IMG/VR virus record: IMGVR_UViG_3300029719_000311
Location: 1 to 31,209 of that record
Reading direction: 5' to 3' (one strand)
Length of the DNA: 31,209 nucleotides
Source of the DNA: a virus
Taxonomy: Duplodnaviria > Heunggongvirae > Uroviricota > Caudoviricetes
Shown here piece by piece: positions 1 to 16,487 of this stretch (the first letter of the stretch is position 1; each line of letters begins with the position of its first letter). A model generated the notes under the pieces. It saw only the letters and a program-made list of their open reading frames with translations. It had not been told where the DNA came from and did not search any database. The translations under genes and the position numbers were made by a program.

Positions 1-1254
1 ATGCTGGAACAAATGGGCATTGCCGCGAAGCAAGCCTCGTATAAATTAGCGCAACTCTCCAGCCGCGAAAAAAATCGCGTGCTGGAAAAAATCGCCGATG
101 AACTGGAAGCACAAAGCGAAATCATCCTCAACGCTAACGCCCAGGATGTTGCTGACGCGCGAGCCAATGGCCTTAGCGAAGCGATGCTTGACCGTCTGGC
201 ACTGACGCCCGCACGGCTGAAAGGCATTGCCGACGATGTACGTCAGGTGTGCAACCTCGCCGATCCGGTGGGGCAGGTAATCGATGGCGGCGTACTGGAC
301 AGCGGCCTGCGTCTTGAGCGTCGTCGCGTACCGCTGGGGGTTATTGGCGTGATTTATGAAGCGCGCCCGAACGTGACGGTTGATGTCGCTTCGCTGTGCC
401 TGAAAACCGGTAATGCGGTGATCCTGCGCGGTGGCAAAGAAACGTGTCGCACTAACGCTGCAACGGTGGCGGTGATTCAGGACGCCCTGAAATCCTGCGG
501 CTTACCGGCGGGTGCCGTGCAGGCGATTGATAATCCTGACCGTGCGCTGGTCAGTGAAATGCTGCGTATGGATAAATACATCGACATGCTGATCCCGCGT
601 GGTGGCGCTGGTTTGCATAAACTGTGCCGTGAACAGTCGACAATCCCGGTGATCACAGGTGGTATAGGCGTATGCCATATTTACGTTGATGAAAGTGTAG
701 AGATCGCTGAAGCATTAAAAGTGATCGTCAACGCGAAAACTCAGCGTCCGAGCACATGTAATACGGTTGAAACGTTGCTGGTGAATAAAAACATCGCCGA
801 TAGCTTCCTGCCCGCATTAAGCAAACAAATGGCGGAAAGCGGCGTGACATTACACGCAGATGCAGCTGCACTGGCGCAGTTGCAGGCAGGCCCTGCGAAG
901 GTGGTTGCTGTTAAAGCCGAAGAGTATGACGATGAGTTTCTGTCATTAGATTTGAACGTCAAAATCGTCAGCGATCTTGACGATGCCATCGCCCATATTC
1001 GTGAACACGGCACACAACACTCCGATGCGATCCTGACCCGCGATATGCGCAACGCCCAGCGTTTTGTTAACGAAGTGGATTCGTCCGCTGTTTACGTTAA
1101 CGCCTCTACGCGTTTTACCGACGGCGGCCAGTTTGGTCTGGGTGCGGAAGTGGCGGTAAGCACACAAAAACTCCACGCGCGTGGCCCAATGGGGCTGGAA
1201 GCACTGACCACTTACAAGTGGATCGGCATTGGTGATTACACCATTCGTGCGTAA
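1..1254 (+). CDS. proA: gamma-glutamyl phosphate reductase ProA (complete, 417 aa)
   Basis: Full-length ORF whose translation I recognise as enterobacterial ProA; host-like GC-rich codon usage; followed directly by tRNA-Thr as in the proBA-thrW locus. Confidence 0.95.
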
Positions 1255-2849: not shown

Positions 2850-3154
2850 TATTTCACCTCTTGCTGTGACATTGTTGAGAAATGGATACCAGCTCGTTGC
2901 TGCCAGACGATCCAACCGAGAGTCATATCCCATGCCATGTATTCGTTATCGCCGTTTTTTGCTCTCCGACGATCTACTAAGTCACCAAAACGCTTTTCCA
3001 TGAATAATTCATAAGCTTCGCGTTCATCTGGTTCTACTTCCAGAGATAGGAGTGCGATTTCATAAGCACGGCGCTCAATATCGTCTCGCACGTCAAGGCT
3101 GCTGATACGCTCTTTAATTTCTTTAATCAGTTCTTTGTCGGTAAAAGTGGTCAT
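2849..3154 (-). CDS. Hypothetical phage early protein (101 aa)
   Basis: ORF translationally coupled to neighbours on both sides (shared boundary bases at 2849 and 3154); acidic helical protein; function unknown. Confidence 0.5.
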   Translation of the reverse strand: MTTFTDKELIKEIKERISSLDVRDDIERRAYEIALLSLEVEPDEREAYELFMEKRFGDLVDRRRAKNGDNEYMAWDMTLGWIVWQQRAGIHFSTMSQQEVK

Positions 3155-3516
3155 TATGCTCCAGCCTCCGGTGCTTTTGGCATTACTGCCCAGTGAGTGA
3201 TATTGACGTTTTCAAGGTCCCCGACCTGAAATGTCCACTGCCATTCTCCGGTTTCTTTTTGTCCCCAGGTGTACCAGAGAGAACGCCAGCCAATTAGCCA
3301 GCCTTCTCCGTTAGCATCGAATAACAAAACACTTTCATTTGCTGGTGGCAGTTCAGTTGACACTGGTATTACTTTGTTTTCCTGTGCTGCACATTTAGCT
3401 TCAAGCGCATCGAATTTACGCACCAGGTATTCAGCATCCGTTTCATTCACTTTCAGATCTCGCGGTACACATCTCCCACGAAGAAACCCTTCCATTTCGA
3501 AAACATTCATGCGCAT
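3154..3516 (-). CDS. Hypothetical phage early protein (120 aa)
   Basis: ORF in the leftward early operon, overlaps HD-domain gene by 10 nt; Trp-rich C-terminus; function unknown. Confidence 0.5.
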   Translation of the reverse strand: MRMNVFEMEGFLRGRCVPRDLKVNETDAEYLVRKFDALEAKCAAQENKVIPVSTELPPANESVLLFDANGEGWLIGWRSLWYTWGQKETGEWQWTFQVGDLENVNITHWAVMPKAPEAGA

Positions 3517-4043
3517 TTGCGTAACTCCGATAATTCGTTAAAGCGTTCCATAAACATCCCGTAGGCATGGCCTGGAGCCAGTGGAATCACGTTGAACATC
3601 TCTGTTGCCGGGATACCTTCCAGCACAGGCCAGAAAGAGCCATCATCAAGCCCGAGATCGCGGCGTTCGGTTGCCAGCATAATGAGATCGGCATATTTCA
3701 CTGGCGTGCTCATAACAGGAGGTAACCCGTATTTCTCACGGATTACGGCGTCTATTTTTTCTTCCATCCGTTTATAGTCAGGAAGAAGTCGTTTCAGTGG
3801 TGCGGGGATGTCCTGGCAATATGCTTCTGTTGCATCATGCATTAAAGCTTCAAAAGCAAATTCCTGCGGCACCAGCTGGCTGCAAAGCACCGCATGTTGG
3901 GCGACACTGTAGAAGTGTGAAAGATGTCCTGCAAAGCGACAGATATTTGAAAGGGAAACCGCGATATCGTTAATAACGATGTCGTCTTTATTTATCCTGT
4001 CATAATAAAAATGCTTCCCGGAAAAAGTTTTAATAAATGACAT
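3507..4043 (-). CDS. HD-domain phosphohydrolase (YfdR-like), about 178 aa
   Basis: HD signature in ...HFYSVAQHAV... and ...ALMHDATEAY...; start chosen at second ATG (MSFIKTF) preceded by GGAGAA; the longer ORF could start at 4070. Confidence 0.7.
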   Translation of the reverse strand: MSFIKTFSGKHFYYDRINKDDIVINDIAVSLSNICRFAGHLSHFYSVAQHAVLCSQLVPQEFAFEALMHDATEAYCQDIPAPLKRLLPDYKRMEEKIDAVIREKYGLPPVMSTPVKYADLIMLATERRDLGLDDGSFWPVLEGIPATEMFNVIPLAPGHAYGMFMERFNELSELRKCA

Positions 4044-4099
4044 TTTGTTCTCCACGTATATGCGCTGCACCGCGCTGAATTCGGGTAAAAGGAAGCCCT

Positions 4100-4587
4100 C
4101 ACCGTCCGGCGATTATTGAGTCAATTACATTTCCATAAATGCCCCCGTAGGGGCGGTTAGTTTCTCCACAAAACAGAGAAGAACACCTGCGGTGGCAGCC
4201 GCCCGGATGGATTGGGTTATGAGCCCGTCGTCCGGTGATGCTCTTCTCTGTTTTGTAAAAAGGACGGTACCAGCCGGAAGCAAGGGTACAAACTGGTACC
4301 GCCAGGACTACACACAGCATAAAGTTGTGGTGCCGGGTGCCTCCCGGTGCCTGGCGAAGGTTGCACACCAGGCGGGTGGGTATCCACAGAAGGTCGACTG
4401 TCAGCCTCAACCTTAACCCGCGTGCGCTGAGCCGCATTCACCACAACGCTAAGGATTCTCTCTGGTTGAAAATACTTAGCTGTTATGTGCCTGCTTTTAG
4501 CCACATCAGGCGAGGTGGACCTAGTTATTCCCCAACAACAAGGATTCGGTTAATCTGGTTATCCCCAACAACGCAAAAGGAAAAGAA
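4100..4587. other. GC-rich non-coding segment with nested inverted repeats and two 16-bp direct repeats; candidate structured RNA or early-left regulatory region
   Basis: Perfect 15-bp inverted repeat ACAAAACAGAGAAGA (4168..4182 / 4242..4256) around a 59-nt GC-rich spacer; GGTACCAG/CTGGTACC inverted repeat (4266..4300); GCCCC..GGGGC hairpin (4141..4155); direct repeats GTTATYCCCCAACAAC at 4524..4540 and 4558..4572; track ORFs here overlap on both strands and lack RBS. Confidence 0.3.
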
Positions 4588-5022
4588 ATGTCCGGTAATA
4601 TCTATACGCTGTACAAATCCCACTGTGAAAATGTTGGAAAGTATCGGGGCATTGAAATCAGTGGGGTAGTGTCATCAGTCGAAATAAGCAAAGTTGAATC
4701 AAGGGCAACATTACTTACTCTTTTGGACCTTGTCTTACATGAGCACCGGAAGAAATTCGGCACTCCCTATAATCAGTTGAATGGGAAAAAGGCTCTGGTT
4801 CACCTTATTCTGATGAAGCATCACTGGATGCCAAAACAGATTAATGAGATGAAATTTGATGAACTTCTTCTTTCAATTCAGGATGAACTCACACTTGATA
4901 AAATAAGCGTAACCGCCCAGAAATTTTTAGATTATCGAGACTGGAGATCACAAATTCATCACTTTGATGATTTTGACGAAAATGAATGGGATCCTAATTT
5001 GTCTGCACAATATCTAAAGTAA
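4588..5022 (+). CDS. Hypothetical protein (144 aa), rightward gene at the sieB/N-equivalent position
   Basis: ATG preceded by AAAGGAAAAG; moderately AT-rich; orientation opposite to surrounding early-left genes; no recognisable motifs. Confidence 0.5.
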   Translation: MSGNIYTLYKSHCENVGKYRGIEISGVVSSVEISKVESRATLLTLLDLVLHEHRKKFGTPYNQLNGKKALVHLILMKHHWMPKQINEMKFDELLLSIQDELTLDKISVTAQKFLDYRDWRSQIHHFDDFDENEWDPNLSAQYLK

Positions 5023-5200
5023 CATCCTGTGATAAAACCGTGATTTCCTGATCCAGTTTTTTTAAGGAGTCTATTGTTTCCTGTCGATAAGACAGCACTT
5101 CACGAAGCTGGTTTATAGCTGCCAGCTTCTTTGTCATCCACTCATAAATTTCCTCATCTGTGTAGCCAGGCGCGACGATTTTGGGTTCTGTTTTGTGCAT
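4994..5200 (-). CDS. Hypothetical small protein (68 aa)
   Basis: Start at internal ATG (MHKTEPKIVAPGYTDEEIYEW...) preceded by AGGAG at 7-nt spacing; convergent with and overlapping the 3' end of the 144-aa gene. Confidence 0.4.
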   Translation of the reverse strand: MHKTEPKIVAPGYTDEEIYEWMTKKLAAINQLREVLSYRQETIDSLKKLDQEITVLSQDVTLDIVQTN

Positions 5201-5397
5201 TTCACATCTCCTCAAGTTATCAGTTACTTGTTGATGGGGACCAGATTGTTAAAGAGCTAAGCGTCCTGTAGGGCGCTTTTTTGTTGCTAACGAATCATCC
5301 TGGACTTCATATGCCCCAGGCGGCTACTTCGTGGGCGTCCTGCCTGTTCGTTGTTTCGCTTGGGTACATTATGTATCTCGAAGGTACATTGTCAAGT

Positions 5398-5434: not shown

Positions 5435-6109
5435 TTAGGCTTTGATTTTGTATCTTCTTGGTTTTCCTGAGAAAATCACTGTACCAATTATAGAGCAATT
5501 ACCGTTGATCTTAATGTAAGGCTCAGGCCAGTTTGGGTTTAACGCTTTGAGATAACGCTGTGTCCCATCTTCTATCAACCTTTTGAAGGTGGTTTCGCCT
5601 GTATCGTGCATCAATGCAATAACGTCGTCACCGTGGCAGGCAGGTACTTCAGGATCGACAAAAATCATGTCTCCCGGGCGGTACTCATCAATCATTGAAT
5701 CACCTATCACCCGCAAGATATAAGTCATTTCCCCACAGGGTACAGGGCAGGGATACGTTTCTGCTGTGCTCAAATCAACCTCAGAATATCCAACTTCTTT
5801 CCATGCTCCGGCCTGTACCCATGATATGACAGGGACTAATGTGATTTGTTTATTAGTGATTGAAACATCAGGTTTTTTTGTGATGTTCGTTGTCTGGTGT
5901 TCTTGATCGAGCCATCCGACAGGCAGGTCGAAACATTTTTCGATGTGTCGTGCCATGCTGTCACCGATATTTTTAGTAGCACCATCTCCCATAAACCTGC
6001 TGGTCTGGGTTGGCTCGCGATCAATCATAGTGGCAAAGGAAGAATTCCCGCCAACACCATCTCTCAGTTTTCTGGCGTTAGACCGCCGGATGTCATGGAT
6101 TGTTTTCAT
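5435..6109 (-). CDS. Phage repressor, cI/C2-like (N-terminal HTH, C-terminal S24 LexA-type peptidase domain)
   Basis: C-terminal ...VIGDSMIDEYRPGDMIFVDPE... (S24 GDSM serine motif) plus a downstream Lys; divergent from cro-like gene with palindromic operators between them. Confidence 0.85.
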   Translation of the reverse strand: MKTIHDIRRSNARKLRDGVGGNSSFATMIDREPTQTSRFMGDGATKNIGDSMARHIEKCFDLPVGWLDQEHQTTNITKKPDVSITNKQITLVPVISWVQAGAWKEVGYSEVDLSTAETYPCPVPCGEMTYILRVIGDSMIDEYRPGDMIFVDPEVPACHGDDVIALMHDTGETTFKRLIEDGTQRYLKALNPNWPEPYIKINGNCSIIGTVIFSGKPRRYKIKA

Positions 6110-15903: not shown

Positions 15904-16487
15904 TGGTATTCAGAATGAGTGAACAACCACGGACCATAACAATTTATAATCTGCTGGCCGGAACTAATGAATTTATTGGTGAAGGTGATGCATATATTCC
16001 GCCTCATACAGGTCTGCCAGCAAACAGTACCGATATTGCACCGCCAGATATTCCGGCAGGCTTCGTGGCTGTTTTCAACAGTGATGAGGCATCGTGGCAT
16101 CTCGTTGAAGATCATCGGGGTAAAACGGTTTATGACGTGGCTTCCGGCGACGCGTTATTTATTTCTGAACTCGGTCCGTTACCGGAAAATGTTACCTGGT
16201 TATCGCCGGGAGGGGAATATCAGAAGTGGAACGGCACAGCCTGGGTGAAGGATACGGAAGCAGAAAAACTGTTCCGGATCCGGGAGGCGGAAGAAACAAA
16301 AAACAGCCTGATGCAGGTAGCCAGTGAGCATATAGCGCCGCTTCAGGATGCTGTAGATCTGGAGATCGCAACGGAGGAAGAAAACTCGTTGCTGGAAGCC
16401 TGGAAAAAGTATCGGGTGTTGCTGAACCGTGTTGATACATCAACTGCACCGGATATTGAGTGGCCTGCTGTCCCTGTTATGGAGTAA
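15903..16487 (+). CDS. tfa: Tail fibre assembly protein Tfa
   Basis: TAATG overlap with stf; ...[68 protein letters not shown]... typical Tfa N-terminal region. Confidence 0.8.

Follow-up and report, generated by a model that had tools for sequence, protein, structure and literature searches.

The stretch of DNA analysed here (the window) is positions 1 to 31,209 of IMG/VR virus record IMGVR_UViG_3300029719_000311, 31,209 nucleotides (nt) in length, and is a lambdoid prophage of the SfV/SfII/SfIV/ST64B type that is integrated beside tRNA-Thr(CGU) and not beside tRNA-Met. Its leftward genes comprise the integrase, xis and three small genes including a yfdR-like 5′-deoxynucleotidase (3507-4070), and a cI-like repressor gene lies on the minus strand at 5435-6109. 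Our subject is the block at 4100-4587, the gap between the yfdR-like gene and a rightward gene for a 144-aa protein of the ECs1072 family. The block is non-coding and holds two structured RNAs on its minus strand: module A, a member of the STnc100/PasD family of small RNAs (sRNAs), and module B, a conserved and apparently undescribed three-way junction, one arm of which carries an exact 14-nt copy from the anticodon arm of the E. coli initiator tRNA (tRNA-fMet).

Coding potential, strand and repeats

The block had been described as lacking a convincing open reading frame (ORF) in an earlier reading made from the letters of the DNA alone (below, the sequence-only reading), and codon-position, indel and stop evidence bears this out. 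Across 19 distinct homologues of a 112-aa ORF at 4099-4437, the variable alignment columns fall on codon positions 1, 2 and 3 in numbers of 21, 16 and 17, which shows no third-position bias; in 6 of 18 homologues the length difference is not divisible by three, and three have stops in all three forward frames. A conserved coding frame was looked for in these data and none was found. The evidence for a protein here consists of public annotations (a frameshifted hypothetical protein from PGAP, and SfII_35), and as the region is non-coding we take these hypothetical proteins to be artefacts. Folding of the whole block compared with shuffled sequences gave z = -4.97 for the minus strand and z = -2.28 for the plus strand, and its G-U pairs are valid on the minus strand only, from which the sense of the RNA is minus. 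The same one-strand pairs, together with covariation, argue against a role confined to the DNA, such as an operator or a cruciform. That the block encodes the 112-aa product, or is a DNA-level element and nothing else (an attachment-site relic included, see below), we consider very improbable.

The repeats listed by the sequence-only reading all exist, at or near the places it gave. The perfect 15-bp inverted repeat is there (ACAAAACAGAGAAGA at 4168-4182 and TCTTCTCTGTTTTGT at 4242-4256, exactly 59 nt apart) and can be extended to 25-nt arms with 84% complementarity, and the GCCCC/GGGGC hairpin was found at 4141-4155. A second inverted repeat is present but has 9 bp rather than 8 (CGGTACCAG at 4265-4273 and CTGGTACCG at 4293-4301), and two direct repeats do start 34 bp apart, at 4524 and 4558, although they are of unequal length, the consensus having hidden a 1-nt indel. 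Where that reading saw nested repeats, however, there is not one element but three separate minus-strand units: an sRNA terminator, whose stem is the second repeat, a tRNA-like three-way junction, which is the 15-bp repeat with its 59-nt loop, and a small hairpin.

Module B is a conserved three-way junction

Module B starts two bases after the U-run of the module A terminator. Compared with the copy in ST64B, it shows a compensatory change from G-C to A-U as well as G-U and U-G pairs that are workable only in a minus-strand RNA, and its "loop" is more conserved than its stem. A search with the conserved loop segment identified at least 120 viral contigs with 70 distinct variants. In an alignment of 19 distinct sequences, 95.1% of the cells of 32 pairs hold standard pairs and 10 of the 32 are changed on both sides; none of 500 shuffles did as well, and sliding the partners out of register left 34-52% pairing. 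Across this alignment Stem I has 20 bp, Stem II has 5-7 bp (variants CCGGA/UCCGG, CCGGG/CCCGG, CCAGG/CCUGG and CCUGA/UCAGG), the apical hairpin has 3 bp and Stem III is variable. Minimum-free-energy folding gives the same three-way junction, the minus strand of 4160-4258 reaching -47.8 kcal/mol against -24.4 +/- 3.2 for shuffles (z = -7.24). We regard module B as a well-supported conserved structured RNA, and the conservation check that had been proposed for the block came out positive, both of its hairpin systems being kept, compensatory changes included, in well above 100 phage contigs. Rfam, including the tRNA model RF00005, gave nothing on module B at E 10, ARAGORN was silent on the window and its relatives, and permissive Rfam scans found nothing credible for module B in Klebsiella and Pantoea relatives or in the loci from distant phyla described below. 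With no match in Rfam 15 or in limited literature searches, module B is apparently undescribed.

One arm matches the initiator tRNA

Inside the 59-nt loop lies a copy of the initiator tRNA anticodon arm, which the sequence-only reading did not notice; that reading also left the strand uncalled. The identity, 14 of 14 nt, covers a leading C, the three G-C pairs and the loop CUCAUAA with its anticodon CAU, and is set in a hairpin of the same shape. Three G-C pairs at this place are a mark of initiator tRNAs. The tRNA-fMet sequence used for reference recurs with 100% identity in every one of the 5426 complete E. coli genomes, where it is annotated as tRNA-Met. By a rough estimate of our own, an exact 14-nt match between an RNA of about 90 nt and about 45 tRNAs is expected by chance about 1e-3 times, and less often if it has to fall in a matching hairpin. 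To see how far the loop is conserved we left its seven bases free and counted the contexts in which a helix of 5 bp or more flanks it. The loop is CUCAUAA in 62 and CUCAUUC in 16; CCCAUAA, UUCAUAA, CUCAUUA, CUCAUAU, CUCAUCC and CUCAUAC occur in a few each; UCCACAA and UCCACCA occur once each in clear homologues, and AUGAUCC and UGGCAGG once each, possibly by chance. YYCAU is therefore kept in the helix-flanked contexts except for two or four, two of which are clear homologues.

Anticodon-loop sequences occur in the attP sites of tRNA-integrating elements, and the arm could be a relic of such a site. The identity with tRNA-fMet ends at position 41, short of the 3′ end of the tRNA, and the prophage sits at tRNA-Thr rather than tRNA-Met, both of which speak against this part of the DNA-level explanation. 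A different way to read the loop is as a U-turn in which CUCAUAA pairs in antisense with the start-codon regions (UUAUGAG) of phage or host mRNAs, so that module B would be a trans- or cis-acting translational regulator and no tRNA mimic. The loop does match YUNR, and the downstream genes of several relatives begin with AUGAG or UAUGAG, giving 5-6 nt of complementarity. This complementarity is short, however, with none beyond the AUG in the window and many relatives, and the invariant GGG/CCC stem would go unexplained, as would the acceptor-like stem with CCA and the placement in tRNA arrays found in the relatives considered next; we judge antisense pairing to be quite improbable.

Contexts of module B in phages and beyond

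The phages that carry module B show two arrangements. In the early-left type, which includes the window, SfII, SfIV, SfV, ST64B, phiNP, LLS, mEp460 and Stx2c phages, the module invariably comes after a terminator and before the first early-left gene, of the yfdP, yfdQ or yfdR family. The Klebsiella phages have Q first, followed by a tRNA array (Asn, Phe, Thr, Arg), module B and the lysis genes; at most two bases separate module B from the tRNA before it, and it forms the final unit of the array. For instance, in the Klebsiella phages GZ7 and ST16-OXA48phi5.2 it comes right after tRNA-Arg and has the end CAGGCC-A/G-CCA. Stem I of the Klebsiella copies has 6-7 bp and is followed by A-CCA or G-CCA, which resembles an acceptor stem with an encoded CCA. 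Placement in the tRNA array, together with the acceptor-like stem and NCCA, is why the family appears to be derived from, or to imitate, tRNA.

We considered whether modules A and B are obligately paired and rejected this, since exact motifs co-occur in only 11 of 95 module A contexts and 14 of 84 module B contexts; by these counts the two are separate cargo, although in phages LLS and mEp460 module B does have a diverged A-like core ahead of it. In Pantoea phage PA-1 (1201-1300), GUUGUGGUGAAUCG, a typical STnc100-type 5′ core start, comes after module B at a distance of no more than about 30 nt; the invariant 3′ motif is missing there, and either the module order may be reversed or the core may be degenerate.

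A scan across phyla for the motif GACGGGCTCATNNNCCAATCC, using one genome per species (596 Gb), returned 52 matches, against about 17 expected by chance for 18 fixed bases by our own estimate. Enterobacterial prophages with the full element account for 31, and 10 of the other 21 look random. Seven non-enterobacterial matches have a helix of 8-13 bp flush against the motif, where 8 bp is reached at 0.4% of random positions in the same loci; they come from Planctomycetaceae, Acidobacteriaceae, Saccharibacteria, deltaproteobacterial, alphaproteobacterial and gammaproteobacterial genomes and one unclassified metagenome-assembled genome (MAG). Neighbours were examined in five of the seven loci, and in four of these phage genes adjoin the motif: a GpA terminase with a lambda-family portal, a gp6-like connector, a D12 methylase with a glucosaminidase, and a P22 antirepressor domain, respectively. 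The Saccharibacteria copy has a strong terminator after it and an ORF downstream that, judged from sequence, is aspartyl-tRNA synthetase-like, and no obvious phage genes adjoin it. Neither the helices nor the phage context of these distant copies was fixed by the search pattern. In two MAG contigs, the alphaproteobacterial and the unclassified one, the arm motif stands within a larger set of conserved hairpins reaching about 100 nt to either side, with one hairpin upstream (CGUCCGG...CCGGGCG) and two downstream, which suggests an RNA bigger than the arm. The unclassified contig also has a weak match to the type II hammerhead ribozyme (973-1032, minus strand; 30.9 bits against a gathering score of 37, E 0.023), and the module B-like motif is about 700 nt away from it.

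The early-left placement raises the question whether module B is simply an RNase III processing and translation-control hairpin of the early-left leader, its likeness to tRNA-fMet being incidental. By cutting Stem I, RNase III would then detach the mRNA from the sRNA upstream of it and would govern how stable the message of the first gene is or how it is translated. The leader of lambda N has such an RNase III-sensitive hairpin, long and located past the pL-proximal RNA signals but ahead of the first early-left gene, and module B agrees with this in its nearly perfect 20-bp stem, with a conserved mid-stem mismatch in most relatives, in its position between terminator and first early-left gene in every early-type locus, and in a conserved GGAG-containing tail with a further hairpin just ahead of the start codon. 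The long Stem I is not universal, however, being 6-7 bp in Klebsiella copies and replaced by other stems in distant phyla, whereas the apical arm is conserved, and a pure RNase III site would have no need of an invariant loop and internal loop. We take this explanation seriously, as the main rival of mimicry, while holding it to be unlikely.

Module A belongs to the STnc100/PasD family

The sequence-only reading had offered a prophage sRNA as one possible role, and this is right for the right-hand half of the block. STnc100 and PasD, sRNAs of Salmonella and E. coli prophages, are described as related, and it was Hfq RIL-seq that revealed PasD (bioRxiv 10.64898/2026.05.13.724894). The Rfam/Infernal check suggested for the block was productive for module A, though not for module B: in a permissive scan RF02076 (STnc100) matches 4477-4255 on the minus strand with 43.1 bits and E 7.5e-8, over model positions 1-206 of 206 and including the terminator, while at gathering thresholds Rfam finds IS009 and tRNA-Thr only in the window. 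To avoid circularity we built a covariance model, R1, from 22 cores of other subfamilies, excluding sequences of the window type. R1 has a single match in the window, 4322-4448 on the minus strand, with 70.8 bits and E 1.6e-17 over positions 1-119 of 119, and it also matches ST64B, SfII, SfIV, phage P1 and three tandem copies in Fels-1. We conclude that module A is a well-supported member of the STnc100/PasD family, of an early-operon subfamily.

The invariant 22-mer of the family was found in at least 120 viral contigs, which, with close relatives of the window added, gave 84 distinct cores of 103-143 nt. All are built alike: helix P1 closes the core, AAU comes next, then hairpin P2, whose apical loop is UNNGC, then a central domain, and an invariant hairpin stands beside the 3′ strand of helix P1. 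The central domain is an H-type pseudoknot, in which the segment after P2 pairs with the loop of the hairpin preceding the invariant hairpin. It recurs at the same position in most of the 84 cores, 67 having both helices of at least 5 bp, and helix A covaries widely (AUCAGCG/UGCUGGU, CUGGUG/CACCGG, CCAGUC/GACUGG, CUAGGC/GUCUAG and AGACUGACAAA/UUUGUCAGUCU, for example). Helices P1 and P2 carry compensatory changes too, and in the subfamily of the window the lower P2 stem has G-C pairs in place of C-G. The family core thus has a covarying pseudoknot that is not included in the Rfam model, the only model with which we compared it. The position of P0 is taken by a hairpin with another sequence in ST64B, phage P1 and the Q-linked class. 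A terminator-like hairpin lies 20-70 nt 3′ of the core in 118 of 120 distinct contexts, under loose hairpin-plus-T-run criteria. Between core and terminator, the spacer varies among family members whereas the core is conserved, and the spacer may serve for base pairing.

The family is usually found in a late leader, with Q, DNA methylase, RusA and DUF968 genes upstream and holin and lysozyme genes downstream. In many Klebsiella phages a strong promoter sets +1 at the first base of helix P1, and in Stx2 phages the core lies between stx2B and an esterase gene. ST64B, SfII and SfIV share with the window a core in the early-left leader. In phage P1 the core (2501-2627, 59.6 bits) is found in the C1-controlled ban operon, between tRNA genes and just 5′ of tciA (TerB-like); no terminator follows it, which makes it a 5′ untranslated region (UTR) there, and the changes in its helix P1 are compensatory (GUUGCGGUG/CACCGCAAC). 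Fels-1 has three tandem STnc100-type cores between its Q gene and holin (2601-2727, 2996-3104 and 4138-4272, with 69, 86 and 31 bits), and two core copies stand 267-922 nt apart in several viral contigs.

The leftward leader and the question of antitermination

The probable promoter pL, a near-consensus sequence just downstream of the cI-like gene, where a pL would be expected, is the likely source, judging from its sequence, of read-through transcription entering the block. Its transcript would be antisense to the 144-aa gene (4588-5022, plus strand), as that gene is convergent with pL transcription. About 65 nt after pL (5291-5353, minus strand) have 87% identity to the ST64B leader downstream of its cI and are present in SfII and SfIV too. 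The pL-proximal leader at 5255-5362 folds no better than shuffles (z = -1.0), and the 65 nt have no similarity to HK022 put. This conserved segment is nevertheless a better candidate place for a put-like element than the block at 4100-4587.

A nut- or put-like antitermination RNA was another role that the sequence-only reading had proposed, and the evidence does not support it. The block would in that case be a cis-acting signal for processive antitermination of pL transcription. Several facts make the idea attractive. The leader has one clear terminator and terminator-like hairpins before the first gene, ST64B having one extra, so some antitermination is needed because terminators precede the first early-left gene; no N-like protein is evident, neither the 73-aa product (4994-5215, minus strand) nor the 144-aa product, encoded between pL and the block, having a Pfam match; and in many phages the core begins at +1 of a strong promoter that lies between Q and the lysis genes. 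HK022-type put elements act in cis, suppressing downstream terminators via the beta′ zinc-binding domain of RNA polymerase. However, there is no motif, BLAST or model match to putL or putR in HK022, where the invariant motif of the family is absent; one 17-nt HK022 match was rejected as chance, lying inside the cII coding region. The HK022 put RNA has about 70 nt and two stem-loops (PMC9378689), against a five-helix pseudoknotted core here. The core is followed by its own terminator in nearly all contexts (118 of 120, by the loose criteria given above), the opposite of what is expected of a cis antiterminator, and the founding members of the family were described as discrete sRNAs. The late-region copies of the family coexist with a Q gene. 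As to nut, only a GCUCUU-like hexamer was noted, buried in Stem I of relatives, in the course of work that did not include a dedicated boxA/boxB scan. Antitermination by the block itself is, in our view, improbable.

Other features of the leader and its surroundings

The features of the block are collected in Table 1. The small G+C hairpin and the tail after Stem I belong to the 5′ UTR architecture of all early-type relatives, which have at the place of the hairpin one of other sequence, often with a GUGCAG loop. A further hairpin, GCGC-GGUGCA-GCGC (4062-4075, minus strand), lies about 20 nt upstream of the yfdR-like start codon, and many relatives have hairpins with GUGCAG-type loops and differing stems just ahead of their first early-left gene. 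We considered and rejected a conserved leader peptide that would begin at a GUG or AUG after Stem I (MEK[PL]T...): its stop is no nearer the next gene than those of the other two frames (54 against 42 and 42 of 101), and some copies stop after 3-6 codons. The direct repeats are outside the RNA module shared with SfII, similarity to which stops at about 4518, and travel with the 144-aa gene. Operator repeats for this gene were the third role that the sequence-only reading had offered; in all 80 related loci the 144-aa protein is 100% identical and the DNA upstream near-identical, leaving no diversity around the repeats.

Between its putative pL and its STnc100-like core, ST64B has an extra non-coding, G+C-rich stretch of about 290 nt (3157-3450), which closes with its own terminator (CUGGCGG...CCGCCAG CUUUUU), so that at least two terminator-ended units precede module B in the ST64B leader. 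E. coli K-12 CPS-53, which has the yfdP-yfdT homologues, lacks both RNAs, and K-12 transcript data are for this reason no help. Elsewhere in the window, IS009 (RF02111) has a full-length Rfam match at 16246-16444 (plus strand; 222.7 bits, E 9.8e-55).

Table 1. Positions of the RNA modules, their parts and associated signals in the window.
Feature	Position	Strand	Sequence or detail	Basis
Probable leftward early promoter pL	5368-5395	minus	TTGACA-16-CATAAT	11/12 consensus match
Direct repeats	4524-4539; 4558-4572	not assigned	GTTATTCCCCAACAAC (16 nt); GTTATCCCCAACAAC (15 nt)	sequence
Module A, whole	4257-4480	minus	STnc100/PasD-family sRNA	Rfam, own covariance model
5′ hairpin P0	4448-4480	minus	GCUAAGUAUUUUC / GAGAAUCCUUAGC, directly upstream of core	inverted repeat
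Structured core	4322-4448	minus	about 125 nt, five-helix	Rfam, own model, pseudoknot comparison
Core helix P1	4439-4447 with 4324-4332	minus		
Core hairpin P2	4420-4435	minus		
Pseudoknot helix A	4408-4414 with 4357-4363	minus	AAGGUUG/CAACCUU, in loop of hairpin B	
Hairpin B	4366-4373 with 4349-4356	minus	GCCUGGUG/CGCCAGGC	
P5	4333-4347	minus	CCGGG-AGGCA-CCCGG	invariant hairpin
Invariant 22-mer of the family	4328-4349	minus	CACCGGGAGGCACCCGGCACCA	shared by window and Rfam consensus
Spacer, core to terminator	4305-4321	minus	short, unstructured	position only
Intrinsic terminator	4257-4304	minus	stem UGGCGGUACCAG/CUGGUACCGUCC at 4262-4304, U5 at 4257-4261	sequence
Module B, tRNA-like three-way junction	4168-4256, with tail to 4160	minus		alignment, minimum-free-energy fold
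Stem I	4237-4256 with 4168-4187	minus	20 bp	
Stem II	4231-4235 with 4203-4207	minus		
14 nt identical to tRNA-fMet	4214-4227	minus	CGGGCUCAUAACCC	positions 28-41 of E. coli initiator tRNA-fMet
Apical hairpin	4214-4226	minus	GGG-CUCAUAA-CCC	
Stem III	4189-4202	minus		
Conserved tail	4160-4167	minus	GGAGAAAC, directly 3′ of Stem I	in nearly all early-left-type homologues
Small G+C hairpin	4140-4156	minus	GCCCC-UAC-GGGGGC	-12 kcal/mol

Interpretation

We lean, with modest confidence, towards reading the block as an untranslated leader of the leftward early genes (yfdR-like, xis, int) in which two independent minus-strand RNA modules are carried, the sRNA of module A and, in module B, a mimic of the initiator tRNA anticodon arm. 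Its homologues suggest that module A would accumulate as a discrete Hfq-associated RNA of about 200 nt, and it may be cut from the pL transcript without having a promoter of its own. As module B starts two bases after the terminator U-run, it would be made only on read-through of that terminator, presumably from pL during lytic development, and would appear together with early-left expression. One arm of its junction would then display the exact anticodon stem-loop of tRNA-fMet and act by molecular mimicry. In the most likely version it would serve as a decoy or competing substrate for nucleases that cut this arm, such as VapC/MvpT of Shigella and Salmonella; in S. flexneri, S. enterica and Leptospira, VapC toxins cleave this very stem-loop of tRNA-fMet, at the bond joining A38 to C39 (PMC4105405). 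In module B these two positions correspond to 4217 and 4216. A less likely version has it bind some other reader of the arm, for which MetRS and the 30S P site with IF3 are candidates. The tRNA genes of phages have been suggested to protect against anticodon nucleases, tRNA-fMet itself being rarely among them (PMC10264068), and a decoy would fit both the placement in tRNA arrays and the spread across phyla. Taken by itself, mimicry of whatever kind is a possibility about which we are doubtful, and the narrower proposal, of a cross-phylum phage RNA family that copies the initiator arm as a decoy or competitive substrate for PIN toxins of the VapC/MvpT type, is rather unlikely.

A number of points weigh against this reading. 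For module A, the score is under the RF02076 gathering cut-off (43.1 against 47 bits), the window copy lies in an early-left leader, between the cI-side pL and the yfdR-like gene, instead of the usual late leader, and no acceptable sigma-70 match was found directly upstream in the conserved block, including 4481-4520. For module B, the mimicry idea rests on 14 nt and their context, and the tRNA likeness behind our chance figure was spotted after the fact. Below the three G-C pairs there is an internal loop and not Watson-Crick pairing as in tRNA, the loops UCCACAA and UCCACCA of two homologues break YYCAU, and the window copy has its 20-bp Stem I followed by the tail, with no acceptor-like stem and NCCA. 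The flanks GAC and AAUCC were fixed by the search patterns, so that conservation outside Enterobacterales is partly by construction. Finally, expression, RNA ends, processing and every functional step are inferred.

Module A alone would be routine, adding an early-operon subfamily to the STnc100/PasD sRNAs and a core pseudoknot missing from the Rfam model. Module B is the interesting part: a structured RNA without an Rfam family that duplicates the most conserved feature of the initiator tRNA, is found in the tRNA arrays of some phages and recurs beside phage genes in distant phyla. If the mimic is real, the idea that phage tRNA cargo acts against nucleases would widen from replacement tRNAs to RNA decoys, and it would be explained how phages cope with attack on the one tRNA they rarely carry. 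If the decoy is real, it would be an RNA-based anti-defence in the leader positions where phages keep tRNA genes.

Comparison with known systems

Module A shares with STnc100 and PasD the full Rfam alignment, the terminator, the invariant 22-mer, helix P1, the P2 loop UNNGC and P5, and differs from them in its score below gathering, the flipped lower P2, its early-left location and the lack of an evident +1 promoter. The putL and putR elements of HK022 are likewise structured early-operon leader RNAs in a lambdoid phage without an obvious N, as here, but the block has a pseudoknotted core of about 125 nt with its own terminator, and a three-way junction, with no similarity in sequence or by model. 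By analogy, module B could be likened to the lambda N-leader hairpin, as it too is a long hairpin on the way from pL-proximal signals to the first early-left gene; its conserved part, however, is the apical arm, which is found outside early-left leaders as well. With tRNA-fMet it has in common an arm identical over positions 28-41, and it has relatives in tRNA arrays that end in an acceptor-like stem with NCCA, yet it is no cloverleaf, having three arms, no D arm and no T loop. Compared with phage tRNA genes (PMC10264068), module B occupies the same niche of operon leaders and tRNA arrays and duplicates an arm that nucleases attack; it differs in being no working tRNA, so that by this analogy it would have to act as a decoy or inhibitor.

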